Assembly (NCBI GenBank): GCA_963768655.1
Contig: CAVYIM010000005.1
Location: forward strand, 384,001-448,000
DNA from: an uncultured Chloroflexia bacterium
GTDB taxonomy: Bacteria; Chloroflexota; Limnocylindria; Limnocylindrales; CSP1-4
Direction of reading: 5' to 3'
Length of the DNA stretch: 64,000 bases
Shown: positions 27,571 through 61,300 of the stretch, piece after piece
Position numbering within the stretch: position 1 is the first letter of the stretch
Layout of the letters: every line of letters starts with the position of its first letter
Program-made: the position numbers and the translations under genes
Notes under the pieces: generated by a model
What the model saw: the letters and a program-made list of their open reading frames with translations, nothing else
Told to the model about the DNA's origin: nothing
The model's database searches: none

Positions 27571-27643
27571 GCGGGGCCGGGTCGCGGACGCGACCGACCG
27601 CACCTAGACGTGTGTGAGCGAGGAGCAGAGGCCCCAACGACGC
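27571..27643 (+). repeat. Diverged copy of the structured intergenic element
   Basis: CGCAC-ctagac-GTGTG TGAGCGAGG AGC...GGCCCC AACGAC matches the 3' half of the other copies. Confidence 0.55.
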
Positions 27644-27660
27644 GATGCGCCGCGAGCCTG

Positions 27661-28047
27661 ATGCGTCGCCCCTGCGAGCCTGCCCCGTCGCCGCTGCGGC
27701 GAACGCAGTGCTAGGAGGAGCCGAGCACCGAAGCGAGAGGACTGAACGTCCGTGAGCAAGGCGCGGAGGCGACGACAACGCAATGCGTCGCCCCTGCGAG
27801 CCTGCCCCGTCGCCGCTGCGGCGAACGCAGTGCTAGGAGGAGCCGAGCACCGAAGCGAGCGGACTGAACGTCCGTGAGCAAGGCGCGGAGGCGACGACAA
27901 CGCAATGCGTCGCCCCTGCGAGCCTGCCCCGTCGCCGCTGCGGCGAACTCAGTGCTAGGAGGAGCCGAGCACCGAAGCGAGCGGACTGAACGTCCGTGAG
28001 CAAGGCGCGGAGGCGACGACAACGCAATGCGTCGCCCCAGCGGCGAC
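27661..28047 (+). repeat. 3 x 122 bp tandem repeat, each unit carrying one structured element
   Basis: Units start at 27661, 27783, 27905 (partial at 28027); I saw only two single-base differences between units. Confidence 0.95.
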
Positions 28048-28445
28048 TATCGCTTGGTGTACTGAGGGGCCTTGCGGGCTCGCTTCAGCCCGTACTTCTT
28101 GCGTTCCTTCATCCGCGGATCGCGGGTCAGAAGACCAGCCTGGCGAAGCGGCAGCCGGTACCCTTCGGGGTCCATCTGAAGAAGGGCGCGGGCGATGCCG
28201 TGGCGGATGGCGCCGGCCTGGCCGGTGACCCCGCCGCCCTCGACCTTGATCTGGGCGTTGTAGGTACCCTCGGTTCCGGTGACCCGGAACGGCATGCGGA
28301 CGTCCGCCTCGTCGATGGCATTGCCGAAGTGCGCCTCGAGGGTTCGATCGTTGACGACGATCTCACCCGAGCCGGGGACGAGACGGACTCGCGCCACCGC
28401 GGTCTTGCGGCGACCGGTCCCGTAGAAGAAAGCTGCGGTAGTCAT
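28047..28445 (-). CDS. rpsI: 30S ribosomal protein S9
   Basis: [41 protein letters not shown]. Confidence 0.98.
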
Positions 28446-28456
28446 TGCGCTCCTCG

Positions 28457-28888
28457 TCAGGCCAGCGGCTCAGGTCGCTGAGCCTGGTGCGGGTGCTCGG
28501 GGCCGGCGTAGATCTTGAGCTTGGTCAGCTGCTGGGCGCCCAGTCGATTGTGCGGCAGCATCCCCTTGACGGCACGGCGGATGACTTCCTCTGGCCGGCG
28601 ATCCAGGAGATGCCCCAGGGTTTCCGCCTTGAGGCCGTGCGGGTAGCCGCTGTGGCGCATGTACAGCTTGGTTTCGCGCTTGTCAGAACTGACGGCAATC
28701 TTGCCGGCGTTCACGACGACGACATGGTCGCCCGAGTCCATGGTCGGGCTGTACATGGGTTTGTTCTTGCCTTCGAGCACTCGAGCGATGCGCGACGCCA
28801 GACGGCCGAGCGTCTCGTCCGTCGCGTCCACGACGTACCAGCGTCGCTCGATCTCGCTCTCACGGACCGTATATGTCTTGGCGGTCAT
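28457..28888 (-). CDS. rplM: 50S ribosomal protein L13
   Basis: WYVVDA, LGRLAS, HSGYPHG, AVKGMLP; ATG 28888. Confidence 0.98.
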
Positions 28889-29688
28889 CGTTCTCCGTTC
28901 GATCTGGCGGTCGTGCTTGCCGGCGCCGTCCCGCCCCTCGTGGGGCCCAGAACGACGCGCCTCAGGCAAAGGCCTTTCGCGGGGGCCGCGGCCCCGTTGA
29001 ACGCCGGTCGCCCCGACGCGAGCGCCGCGGCGACTGCCTCTTCATCTGTCCTGCCGTGACCGGCCTCGAGGAGAGCGGCCACGATCCTTCGCACCATCTG
29101 GCGGAGGAAGGCATCGGCCGCGACGTCGATCGTCACGAGCGACCCTTCCTTCCGGACGCGGACCCAATGCACGGTCCGGACCGGCTGCCGGTGCGCCGCC
29201 CCGAAGGCGCTGAAGTCGTGACGGCCAACCAGGACCGACCCGACCCGCTCCATCGCGGCGATACTCAACGGGTCCCGCACCCCGAGCGCATAACGCTCGC
29301 GGAGCGGGCTTCGCGGCCCGTTCCAGACGGTGTAGCGATACTCCCGATATCGCGCCGCGTGGCGTGGATGGAACCCGGCCGGTACGCGGCGCATCTCGCG
29401 AAGCGCCACGTCCGCTGGCAGCAGCGCATTGAGCGCCCTGGTCAGCTCCCTTGCCGGTCTACGCTGCGGATCGGTGAAGGCAATCACCTGCCCGCGAGCG
29501 TGGACTCCGGCGTCGGTTCGGCCCGCCGCCTGAACCCGGATCCGGCCTCCGCCGGAGATCCGCGCCAGCGCGGCTTCGAGTTCCCCCTGGACCGTCCGAG
29601 CCCCAGGTTGGACCTGGAACCCGGCGAAGTCCGTGCCGTCGTATTCAACCGTTGCGCGATACCGCAACGGCGGTGTCCTCTCGGACAC
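28885..29688 (-). CDS. truA: tRNA pseudouridine(38-40) synthase
   Basis: EYDGTDFAGFQ, AGRTDAGVHA, HDFSAF, FLRQMVR. Confidence 0.97.
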   Translation of the reverse strand: MSERTPPLRYRATVEYDGTDFAGFQVQPGARTVQGELEAALARISGGGRIRVQAAGRTDAGVHARGQVIAFTDPQRRPARELTRALNALLPADVALREMRRVPAGFHPRHAARYREYRYTVWNGPRSPLRERYALGVRDPLSIAAMERVGSVLVGRHDFSAFGAAHRQPVRTVHWVRVRKEGSLVTIDVAADAFLRQMVRRIVAALLEAGHGRTDEEAVAAALASGRPAFNGAAAPAKGLCLRRVVLGPTRGGTAPASTTARSNGER

Positions 29689-29722
29689 CTCGCTAGCTGC
29701 TATATGGACGCTCCGACGCGGT

Positions 29723-29804
29723 CAGGGCTAGGCGCCGGCGAGGATCCAAGCGAGCGCACTTGAACGTGCGTGAGCGCCGGACCGGAGCCGGCAACGACGC
29801 CCTG
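29723..29804 (+). repeat. Structured intergenic element (rplQ-truA spacer)
   Basis: CAGGGC TAGGCG CCGGC...AAGCGAG CGCAC-ttgaac-GTGCG TGAGC...GCCGG CAACGAC GCCCTG. Confidence 0.8.
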
Positions 29805-29821
29805 GCTCGTCTGAGCGTCCA

Positions 29822-59485: not shown

Positions 59486-59588
59486 TCTGGGCTCGGCGGA
59501 GCGTCGGATTCTCAGCTCCTGATTGGTTCTGCGGCGCGCAGCCGGCGCGCGGCGGTGGGCCGGTCGGGTCCGCGAACGCGGCACCGAC

Positions 59589-59626
59589 CAAAACGCCCCT
59601 GCGACGGCTCATCGCCACAGGGGCGC
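59589..59626 (-). terminator. Candidate intrinsic terminator/attenuator in the rplA-rplJ spacer
   Basis: GCGCCCCTGTGGCG-atgagc-CGTCGCAGGGGCGT followed by TTT. Confidence 0.5.
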
Positions 59627-59898
59627 TCCCACCCACGCGGATGGAGGCTTGGTCCCTGCCTCGGCGTGCCCGCCGGCGTCTCGGCCGGCGAATTGAGTCG
59701 GGAGCCGCGACCTCGGCCGATCTCTCGGCCGGTGCCACGGCGCGACGACGCATGCTGTCTGCGGCGGTCCGTCGTATTCGGTTAGTGGCGGCCGGCGCCG
59801 GTCCGGCGCCTTGTCGCCTGGCGAGGTCCACGTCGCCGCGGCCTCGCCTCATATGTTGGCGGCTCGACCCTCGGGTCGGCCACGGCTGCCATCGCGGC

Positions 59899-60609
59899 CT
59901 AGGAGGCCGAGGCGATGGCGAGAACGGCCGGGATGTCGACCCGGATGCCGGGGCCCATGGTCGGTACGATCGTGAGCGTCCGGAGGTACTGGCCCTTGGC
60001 GCCGCTCGGGCGGGCACGGTTGATGGCGTCGACCAGGGTCGCCAGGTTCTCGACCAGCTGCTGGCTCTCGAAGCTCGCCTTGCCGAACGGGACGTGGATG
60101 ATGCCGCCCTTGTCCACCTTGAACTCGACGCGGCCGGCCTTGACTTCCTTGATGGCGCGCTCGAGATCGAACGTGATCGTGCCCGACTTCGGGTTCGGCA
60201 TGAGGCCTTTGCGACCGAGGATGCGGCCCAGCTTGCCGACCATGCCCATCACGTCCGGGGCGGCCAGGGCGACGTCGAAGTCCGTCCAGCCGGCCTCGAT
60301 CTTCTTCACCAGGTCGTCGGCGCCGACCTCGTCCGCGCCGGCGCGCAGCGCCTCGAGGGCTTTCTCGCCCTGGGCGAAGACCACGACGCGAATCTTCTTG
60401 CCGGTGCCGTGGGGCAGGACGACGGTGCCGCGGACCATCTGGTCGGCGTGGCGGGGGTCAACCCCGAGGCGGAGGTGCGCCTCGACGCTGGCGTCGAAAG
60501 ACACATAGCTGGTCTTGCGGGCAAGCTCGGCGGCCTCGGGCGGTGCGTAGAGCTTGGTGCGGTCGACTAGCTTCGCCGCCTCCTGATACTTCTTGCCGTG
60601 GTCTGCCAT
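59899..60609 (-). CDS. rplA: 50S ribosomal protein L1
   Basis: [36 protein letters not shown] 60609. Confidence 0.98.
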
Positions 60610-60623
60610 TTCGGTCTCCTTGT

Positions 60624-60675
60624 GCGGCCCCCGGTCACCCGGTTCAGCCTCCCCCGTTTCGTGGGGTCTCCCGCC
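60624..60675 (-). promoter_or_regulatory. Putative L1-binding leader upstream of rplA
   Basis: GCGG-GAGA-CCCC...GGGG-CCGC bulged stem just 5' of the AAGGAG RBS; resembles L1 autoregulatory sites. Confidence 0.4.
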
Positions 60676-60742
60676 GGTCAATCGACCGGATGGCTGGCAT
60701 GTGCAGATCTACCACCACTCATCTGGACTGCCTTCCGGCAGT

Positions 60743-61168
60743 TCAGCCGTCGACCTCGATGCCCATGCTGCGGGCGGTTCCTTCGACCTGGGCCATTGCG
60801 CCGGCGATGTCTGTGGCGTTGAGGTCCGGCATCTTGATAGTGGCGATCTCGCGGATCTGGTCGCGGGTCACTTTGCCGACGGTCTCACGCCCGGCGGTGC
60901 CGGTCCCCTTCTGGATTCCTGCGGCCTTGCGGAGAAGGTCCGCTGCCGGCGGAGTCTTGAGGACGAAGGTGAACGAGCGATCCTCGAAGATCGTGATCTG
61001 GGCCGGGATCACCTGGCCGACCTTGTCGGCGGTCTTCTCGTTGTACGACTTGGTGAACTCGACGATGTTGATGCCGTGAGGGCCAAGCGCCGTGCCGACG
61101 GGCGGCGCCGGCGTCGCCTTGCCGGCGTTCAGTTGGAGCGTGAGGACGATGCGGATCTTCTTGGCCAC
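60743..61168 (-). CDS. rplK: 50S ribosomal protein L11
   Basis: [28 protein letters not shown]. Confidence 0.98.
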
Positions 61169-61225
61169 GAGGGTCGCGATTCCTTTCTAGAACAGGCTTG
61201 ATGAGCGCCGGTCCGGGCGTGTCCA

Positions 61226-61300
61226 GGCCAAGGCGGAGCCGAGCCCATGAGCGAGCGCACACCGGTGCGTCAGCGAAGGCGCGGAGGCGACGACGCCGGC
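61226..61300 (+). repeat. Structured intergenic element (nusG-rplK spacer)
   Basis: CAAGGCGGAGCCGAGC...GAGCGAG CGCAC-accg-GTGCG...AAGGCGCGGAGGCGACGAC; the last 19 nt match the 122 bp repeat unit exactly. Confidence 0.78.

Follow-up and report, generated by a model that had tools for sequence, protein, structure and literature searches.

A family of hairpin-forming intergenic repeats recurring at ribosomal-protein operon junctions in an uncultured Chloroflexota genus

Spacers in and around the ribosomal-protein (r-protein) operons of an uncultured Chloroflexia bacterium of the Limnocylindrales carry a structured repeat of about 110 nt, which forms one long imperfect hairpin with a conserved, purine-rich core. 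The window, i.e., the whole stretch of DNA that was analysed, comprises 64,000 nt (positions 384,001 to 448,000 of contig CAVYIM010000005.1, assembly GCA_963768655.1) and holds eight copies at five sites. At orthologous sites in other species of the genus the repeat is present, absent or reduced to a remnant, and in the copies that persist the pairing is kept by changes on both sides of the stems. The family is previously undescribed and ordinary in kind. Its members are probably small, non-autonomous, hairpin-forming intergenic repeats comparable to repetitive extragenic palindromes (REP) and REPINs, enterobacterial repetitive intergenic consensus sequences (ERIC) or MITEs (miniature inverted-repeat transposable elements), with a mobiliser that is not of the REP-associated tyrosine transposase (RAYT) or IS200-type Y1 class.

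The assembly spans 3.37 Mb in nine contigs (68.6% G+C, 88.6% complete). The copies in the window were placed by direct reading, with an nhmmer profile and with a covariance model, R1, built from 23 genomic copies:

27547..27663, + strand: copy 1, the most diverged, first unit of the cluster downstream of rpsI; placed in alignments of copies (nhmmer E=1e-13)
27686..27801, + strand: copy 2, opening a head-to-tail series of three units, period 122 nt (R1 99.4 bits)
27808..27923, + strand: copy 3, array member (R1 106.8 bits)
27930..28045, + strand: copy 4, array member (R1 107.1 bits; RNA fold -59.2 kcal/mol, z -3.5)
29703..29820, + strand: single copy in the spacer between rplQ (stop 29822) and truA (start 29688), antisense to both (R1 109.4 bits; fold -74.7 kcal/mol, z -6.0)
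37780..37897, - strand: single copy in the spacer between rplF (stop ~37913) and rplR (start ~37761), sense (R1 106.2 bits; fold -69.3 kcal/mol)
59393..59509, - strand: single copy in the 5′ untranslated region (5′UTR) of rplJ (start 59369), sense (R1 119.5 bits; fold -61.5 kcal/mol, z -5.0)
61204..61319, + strand: single copy in the spacer between nusG (stop 61321) and rplK (start 61168), antisense (nhmmer E=2e-13; weakest fold, -55.9 kcal/mol, z -1.1)
28047-28445, - strand: rpsI (Pfam Ribosomal_S9), whose reverse-complement stop codon lies 2 nt from the 3′ end of copy 4

E-values in the window range from 1e-13, for the diverged rpsI-side copy, to 1e-23, and Tandem Repeats Finder reports the array (27661-28042) as 3.1 copies of a 122-nt period with 98% matches. 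A preliminary description of this DNA had proposed eight elements of 75-90 nt at these positions, in both orientations, with no mobiliser nearby and none of the elements in the first 27 kb. Reading, nhmmer and R1 agree on the positions and strands of all eight, both orientations and the lack of a neighbouring mobiliser are borne out, and the converged profile search found no copy in window positions 1-27500. The shared plan that had been proposed also matches the consensus of the 23 copies (WAGGCG, stem 1, RAGCGAG, stem 2, loop, stem 2′, TGAGC, stem 1′, CAAC), but the length had been underestimated: further outer stems extend the pairing beyond 75-90 nt, to a unit of ~106-117 nt.

Conservation is concentrated in the middle of the hairpin. 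Invariant columns are confined to the central ~65 nt, which contain the purine-rich internal loops (AAGG, GAGCA, GAGCGAG / TGAGCGAGGAG, CAACG); the outer stems are variable, and conservation is lowest at the ends. Unpaired residues that are conserved are purines on one strand, and a purine excess on the element strand is likewise evident in the loop mismatches (114 G·A/A·G vs 18 T·C/C·T) and the strand composition (A 20%, T 7%). The 5′-GAGCGAG ahead of the apical stem faces 5′-TGAGCGAG behind it, an arrangement that can be taken for two tandem sheared G·A pairs with G-C/C-G between them or, just as well, for a direct repeat. When the element strand of five window copies was folded as RNA, energies of -55.9 to -74.7 kcal/mol were obtained, with z between -3.5 and -6.0 for four of the five; the complementary strands gave -48.3 to -69.5 kcal/mol, the nusG-rplK copy again being no better than shuffles.

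The pairing is supported by covariation among 118 distinct copies from other metagenome-assembled genomes, scored over 23 pairs in seven helices. In this set 92.2% of cells are paired, vs 72.0% in shuffles, and 425 cells show double changes, vs 137, a value reached by none of 500 shuffles. Changes on both sides occur at 18 of the 23 pairs, and the covariation score of 0.40 falls to 0.04 or less once the partners are slid by 1-3 columns. Seven of the pairs, making up two of the seven helices, carry no weight, since the pattern with which the copies were collected had largely fixed them. The preliminary description of a repeat family with covarying stems and conserved GA-rich loops is supported. 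Wobble pairs were also tried as an indicator of the folding strand, and this was rejected. The first count (128 G·T vs 28 A·C) was unsound because the structure had been derived from a model built on the same strand, and the excess vanished under a symmetric control in which pairs were drawn from folds of both strands, with 12 G·T vs 14 A·C, or 38 vs 49, for A2, 3 vs 10 for the A3 intersection, and 246 vs 140 for the A3 pair union; a single pair that the search pattern had fixed contributes 118 of those 246. Of the strand evidence, the purine excess in the loops is what stands.

Resident copies show the same behaviour within orthologous series. At four sites, each with 5-9 species, 94-98% of cells remain paired and both-side changes are found at 5-10 of the 34-41 pairs per site, while the spacer outside the element has diverged beyond alignment. 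By eye, orthologous copies are more alike than paralogous ones (e.g., the window copy and that of L235), so homogenisation between copies is not the cause of the kept pairing. The kept pairing instead suggests that the hairpin is selected where it sits, or that quasi-palindromes undergo template-switch correction, a process that could yield ‘compensatory’ changes without selection.

The evidence for mobility comes from comparing the five window sites with those of 30 other genomes of the genus, in which the spacers were cut between conserved gene ends (24-27 comparable relatives per site). Filled, empty and remnant states were found, in line with the earlier suggestion that the element behaves as mobile DNA. 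At nusG-rplK, 15 of 27 relatives share a clean 21-nt spacer consisting of stop codon, Shine-Dalgarno sequence and start, and in one more it measures 18 nt. In six, the spacer is 152-154 nt long and contains a full element, and the five longer spacers hold three apex- or interior-deleted remnants, one enlarged copy and one unrelated sequence. At rplF-rplR the element is found in one relative, L178 (83% identity in the flanking genes, ~96% in the element outside the apex, by eye), and the other 25 of 26 have spacers of 24-75 nt without it. The rplJ 5′UTR of 26 relatives contains seven near-full copies, one partial copy and 18 sites without any. Among the latter is the closest relative (~91% identity in the genes flanking this site), which is devoid of a copy at three of the five window sites. 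Downstream of rpsI, 12 of 26 relatives have a full copy, eight a partial one and six none.

The rplQ-truA spacer was struck more than once. Among 24 relatives, 12 have near-full copies, seven in the + and five in the - orientation, one has a weak partial match and 11 have no match, several of the latter holding outer-stem remnants of either orientation group (by eye). Since the outer arms of the two groups differ, they represent separate insertions, i.e., the spacer was filled at least twice, and inversion in situ is ruled out. Remnants without the apex occur here, at nusG-rplK and in the rplJ 5′UTR. Similar states were seen in public sequencing runs from peat, bog and wetland, which contain relatives only (at most 0.15 of sampled words; RNA runs at most 0.11, all of it as contigs). 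Over window positions 58750-62100, contigs from these runs join 61187 to 61319, skipping 131 nt, skip 153-159 nt at the rplJ site, or bear an apex deletion at 59401-59497. The lower depth over the elements in these runs carries no weight as evidence.

Two enlarged spacers, in L154 (nusG-rplK, 203 nt) and L175 (rplJ 5′UTR, 311 nt), have an extra hairpin-like piece inside the repeat copy, which suggests a nested insertion or a replacement of the apex. The rplJ 5′UTR spacer, moreover, collects hairpins in general: elsewhere in the genus, in species represented by L150, L152, L164, L166, L167 and L175, it harbours a second, unrelated family of hairpin insertions, built on a ...GAGAAACCG/CGGTTTCTC... 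stem followed by GCGAATGCGGC...GCCGCATTCGC. Between rplA and rplJ, ~80 nt at window 59589-59668 (- strand) are 82-91% identical in relatives and their surroundings diverge. This segment gave no L10_leader match in Rfam, only a weak match to sodF_sRNA (E 2.3), and may be the L10 leader of this lineage.

In the whole genome, a profile iterated to convergence found 30 copies, which occupy 19 loci and leave only one of the nine contigs without any, all of them intergenic by open reading frames (ORFs) chosen with a GC3-based script of our own, not a validated gene finder. The r-protein stretch, 33.8 kb or 1.0% of the genome, holds five of the 19 loci (eight copies), for which the binomial tail of 1.0e-6 is an overstatement because the stretch was selected for the copies seen there. 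The other 14 loci lie beside unrelated genes, which by Pfam encode glutamate dehydrogenase (gdh), BioY, DnaB/LexA, a NiFe hydrogenase subunit, a LysR regulator, a ketoacyl synthase, an FMN-binding protein, a response regulator, an ABC transporter, ApbE, an Fe-S (SdhB-like) protein, aconitase, Rrf2 and a GNAT protein. Five loci are head-to-tail arrays (of five, three, two and two units, plus the four of the window) with periods of 115-133 nt. The five tandem units on contig C2 are identical, and the copies at C4:439.7k and C6:6k differ at one position of a ~107-nt core (own count) between unrelated flanks. These near-identical cores and identical units mark recent spread.

Beyond this genome, a scan for the conserved apical pattern, with one genome per species, gave at least 120 stretches; of the 120 listed, 118 carry the element by nhmmer. 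The labels of the matching records listed are nearly all Chloroflexota, ‘uncultured Chloroflexia’ or Candidatus Limnocylindrales/Limnocylindria. Full or partial copies also stand under the labels Eisenbacteria, Methylomirabilota, Polarisedimenticolia, Dormiibacterota and Sulfomarinibacteraceae (L036, L044, L080, L060, L071, L099 and L100), and these could be due to mis-binning, labelling or transfer. With R1, all 24 genomes of the same genus were positive, with 1-36 copies each, and none of 16 genomes of a sister family with ~1.1-Mb genomes was. In a sample of the class, R1 matched 35 of 44 genomes of family f1, none of six in f2, three of 49 in f3 (single weak matches) and none of 50 in f4. 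The positive f1 genera are g1, g3, g5, g7, g9, g11, g12 and g14, with one of three genomes in g4, and no R1 match was found in the sampled g6, g8, g10 and g13. Outside f1, seven of 146 genomes sampled from the phylum were positive (families f9, f19, f24 and f28), one of them with 17 copies. Limnocylindria thus include one family in which the repeats are resident, and their occurrence in other Chloroflexota is patchy. In an alignment of 12 distant copies with four from this genome, the central words are kept and the stems vary, the apical stem taking the forms CGCAC/GTGCG, CGCAG/CTGCG, CGCAT/ATGCG, TGCAT/ATGCA and CGTAC/GTACG.

None of the 18 loci examined in seven genomes of distant lineages has an r-protein neighbour. 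The copies adjoin genes such as ftsA, dxs, surE, purE and trpD/trpG-like genes, and others for a penicillin-binding protein, HIT/DnaJ, a sigma-70 factor and citrate synthase, among others. The link to r-protein operons made in the preliminary description hence holds within the window and as a local hotspot in this genus, but it is not a property of the family as a whole; the preference for highly transcribed loci and the co-option for mRNA processing that were also proposed there are conjectural.

Across 121 groups taken from other genomes, the 3′ side of the element faces the end of a convergent gene in 66 and the start of a co-directional one in 19, and the median distance to the (reverse-complement) stop codon is 7 nt. 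Flank similarity reduces these groups to 74 orthology clusters, both flanks being classified in 38: the element is antisense within a co-directional pair in 20, sense in eight, between convergent genes in nine and between divergent genes in one. In the present genome, sites with co-directional flanks comprise eight antisense and four sense (by reading). Copies thus almost always follow a stop codon at short distance, and a position between divergent genes is rare. The same placement, mostly downstream of coding regions and between unidirectional or convergent genes, is described for REPs in the relevant part of PMC3733652.

The preliminary description had named a linked RAYT/HUH transposase or a reverse transcriptase as genes to look for. 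The Y1_Tnp domain (PF01797, RAYT/Y1) was found neither in this genome nor in any of 31 genomes of the genus, 13 of them at least 90% complete, in a search that did give matches in control genomes including E. coli. Likewise, Pfam searches of this genome for OrfB_IS605, DDE_Tnp_1 and rve gave none. Among the six Pfam families searched, the only transposition genes are two of IS110 type (DEDD, 73% alike), together with one RVT_1 reverse transcriptase in a 575-aa frame:

C1:13622-14059, C8:9154-9588 and C8:14298-14993: the IS110-type genes and the reverse transcriptase of this genome

None of these three adjoins, or is flanked by, a repeat copy. No autonomous parent element of the repeats was found, with no systematic search made for longer elements sharing the same ends. 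Beside the IS110-type gene on C1, a ~150-nt repeat recurs on C1 and C9. An all-versus-all comparison of 17 unnamed ORFs neighbouring distant copies revealed no similarity, i.e., no small protein common to them. Nor did three comparisons of filled and empty sites reveal a target-site duplication or a shared target motif (L010 and L014 are too diverged for such a reading); TA occurs near some element ends, often as part of the neighbour's stop codon.

In the comparison with known systems, Rfam 15 at gathering score reports four tRNAs only in the whole window, and at an E-value of up to 10 or 5 only sub-threshold noise in 27400-30000 and 59300-61400. The absence from Rfam that had been anticipated is thereby upheld. 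The suggested likeness to the gamma-150 motif has no support, as no family reached its gathering score and searches permitting E-values of up to 10 gave nothing but noise. A literature search on repeats in Limnocylindria found no paper on the topic by title or abstract.

The nearest likeness is to ERIC, or intergenic repeat units (IRU), of Enterobacteriaceae, ~127-bp imperfect palindromes classed as MITEs in the sections of PMC3184786 that treat them. As presented there, they share with the Chloroflexota family a similar size, a single long imperfect hairpin, tens of copies per genome in numbers that vary widely between relatives, a location in transcribed intergenic space, often at gene 3′ ends, both orientations, and the lack of a known dedicated transposase; effects of ERIC on mRNA stability are also reported (PMC3184786). 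In contrast, ERIC-type repeats are described in the same sections as having terminal inverted repeats, target duplications and a terminal TA, none of which was seen consistently here (PMC3184786). The Chloroflexota family is distinguished by its head-to-tail arrays and its conserved tandem-GA core; the phyla differ, a sequence relationship is not expected, and the comparison is one of descriptions. ERIC size variants reportedly arise from internal deletions and insertions, as Wilson and Sharp are said to have described in 2006.

REPINs, as characterised in the pertinent parts of PMC3116915 and PMC3337134, are similarly extragenic ~100-nt hairpins, in single-stranded DNA or mRNA, with compensatory changes, excision or absence polymorphism and vertical persistence within a lineage. 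However, according to the same part of PMC3116915 both of their ends are highly conserved and the spacer between them is less so, whereas here the centre is conserved and the ends vary, and they are mobilised by RAYTs, none of which was found in the 31 genomes of this genus. REPs within bacterial interspersed mosaic elements (BIMEs) alternate in orientation in the account given by the relevant portion of PMC2817692, unlike the head-to-tail clusters found here. Membership of the REP/REPIN-RAYT system was therefore rejected on the missing RAYT and the reversed conservation pattern, although the extragenic downstream placement does fit. GTAG- and CGTC-tagged REPs are also mostly downstream of coding regions, and the CGTC type too is apparently without a dedicated transposase, as far as the passages of PMC3733652 on tagged REPs go; these give sizes of 20-40 bp, stems of 8-9 bp, A/T at the first two positions, loops of 4-5 nt and a CCA tail. 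The present repeats do not follow these size and stem rules, have no GTAG, and are preceded by CGTC or GATC in some copies only (by eye), so they were not assigned to this group.

Correia repeats (CREE), RUP, BOX and other MITEs, in the outline given by part of PMC3184786, are also ~100-150 bp, non-autonomous, intergenic, co-transcribed and variably present between strains. These MITEs have recognisable terminal inverted repeats matching a parent insertion sequence, or TA duplications; here neither a parent element nor a duplication was found in the Pfam families and filled-versus-empty pairs covered. Integron attC sites pair R″ with R′ boxes (RYYYAAC ... GTTRRRY) and form cassette arrays in which each cassette holds an ORF. 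In the present repeats the conserved CAAC faces AAGG with no GTT partner (by eye) and no ORF lies between array units, and attC was dismissed.

If the repeats are mobile elements of the REP/ERIC/MITE kind, comparative patterns suggest that new copies would enter short spacers, mostly directly 3′ of an ORF, that some would be amplified into head-to-tail arrays, and that copies would decay by deletion of the apex, leaving the outer stems. The r-protein cluster of the genus would then be a hotspot in which several spacers were struck, one of them twice and in opposite orientations. As resident copies evolve by compensatory change, we infer that they are regularly single-stranded, most simply in polycistronic mRNA. 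There, by analogy with REP and ERIC, a hairpin of either orientation (-48 to -75 kcal/mol) could act as a barrier to 3′ exonucleases, a processing site or a terminator, and any such effect on host mRNA would be secondary to mobility. A more tentative proposal, less probable than its negation, is that the 65-nt core could be the recognition module either of an undescribed, hairpin-dependent, non-RAYT mode of mobility of DNA or RNA in Chloroflexota or of a host protein-RNA system copied to operon junctions. The core is shared between Limnocylindria and other Chloroflexota families, and compensatory change preserves it even in copies older at their site than the split of the species.

Several observations weigh against this mobile-repeat interpretation. 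No Y1 transposase was found in the genomes of the genus and no other candidate adjoins a copy, three comparisons of filled and empty sites showed no target duplication or motif, and conservation is weakest at the ends, where a transposon would normally be expected to be recognised. The ‘empty’ sites could in part be precise losses and not ancestral, and all genomes are metagenome-assembled, where repeats are often lost, so that copy numbers are lower bounds. Finally, a core kept across families of the phylum and the compensatory evolution of orthologues fit a host function or a dedicated binding protein at least as well as selfish spread.

The last point leads to the rival that survives best, which we nevertheless consider unlikely: that the element is a host cis-acting RNA module, an intercistronic or 3′-end hairpin that sets mRNA stability, processing or termination, was copied to further places in the genome and is maintained by selection, its mobility being incidental. 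Such a role would account for both-side changes at 5-10 pairs per site in spacers otherwise free to diverge, for the conservation of the core across Chloroflexota families, for copies placed directly after stop codons with divergent promoter regions avoided, and for strong folding of both strands as RNA. Four of the five window sites, moreover, presumably correspond to places where r-protein transcription units begin or end in E. coli. However, three of the five window sites are without a copy in the closest relative, and rplF-rplR, nusG-rplK and rplJ are so in most relatives, hence none of the copies is individually required. Both orientations to transcription occur (20 antisense and eight sense clusters), yet the purine loops are on one strand, and template-switch correction could mimic compensatory change in the absence of selection.

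That the element works as duplex DNA, bound by a nucleoid, topoisomerase or recombination protein in the way suggested for BIMEs, is very unlikely. One strand does carry GAGCGAG both before and after the apical stem, so that the motif reads as a direct repeat as readily as tandem G·A; the two words, ~two helical turns apart, could be direct repeats, and the conserved words persist throughout the phylum while stems vary. This explanation leaves unaccounted for both the covariation along a stem of ~35-41 bp and the deletions that follow the geometry of the hairpin. Regulatory leaders or operators specific to r-protein operons, e.g., autoregulatory r-protein sites, are close to refuted: five of 19 loci do fall in the 34-kb r-protein stretch (binomial tail 1e-6), one of them in the rplJ 5′UTR, the place of the L10 leader in other bacteria, and tandem G·A loops are common protein-binding RNA motifs, but 14 of 19 loci here and 18 of 18 distant loci lie beside unrelated genes, the copies at three of five window sites run antisense to the operon, 18 of 26 relatives, among them the closest, have no rplJ copy, orthologous sites are mostly empty, and no Rfam r-protein leader matches.

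The repeats also affect gene calling. Longest-ORF calls cross them at window 26173-27603 and 37399-37971 (- strand) and at L002:3413-4711, and the true starts of the TPR gene and of rplR are probably further inside. A 432-aa frame that spans the five-copy array on C2 has no Pfam match, and at such repeats wrong starts or spurious ORFs are likely to result from automatic annotation. Elsewhere in the window, a G+C-rich tandem array at 4431-4681 (3-6 copies with 80-94% matches, at periods of 34, 40 and 74 nt) is unrelated to the hairpin family. Two ORFs of equal length (398 aa) and identical codon-position G+C, at 45471-46667 and 62385-63581 (- strand), are presumed from gene order to be duplicated tuf genes, the second being flanked by four tRNA genes (62130-63954).

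Limnocylindria and their relatives are abundant uncultured bacteria of soil and peat whose non-coding DNA is almost unstudied. What sets the family apart is the combination of a conserved GA-rich core, repeated settling at r-protein operon junctions in one genus, and the absence of any known mobiliser from the searches made. A deeply conserved core without a RAYT sharpens the question of how ‘orphan’ palindromic repeats, such as ERIC and CGTC REPs, move. In practice, the covariance model flags intergenic hairpins that would otherwise be called as spurious ORFs, and the insertions, losses and remnants at r-protein operon junctions can serve as markers between species. If the resident hairpins affect mRNA ends, they would change the balance of expression in the most conserved operons of the cell.

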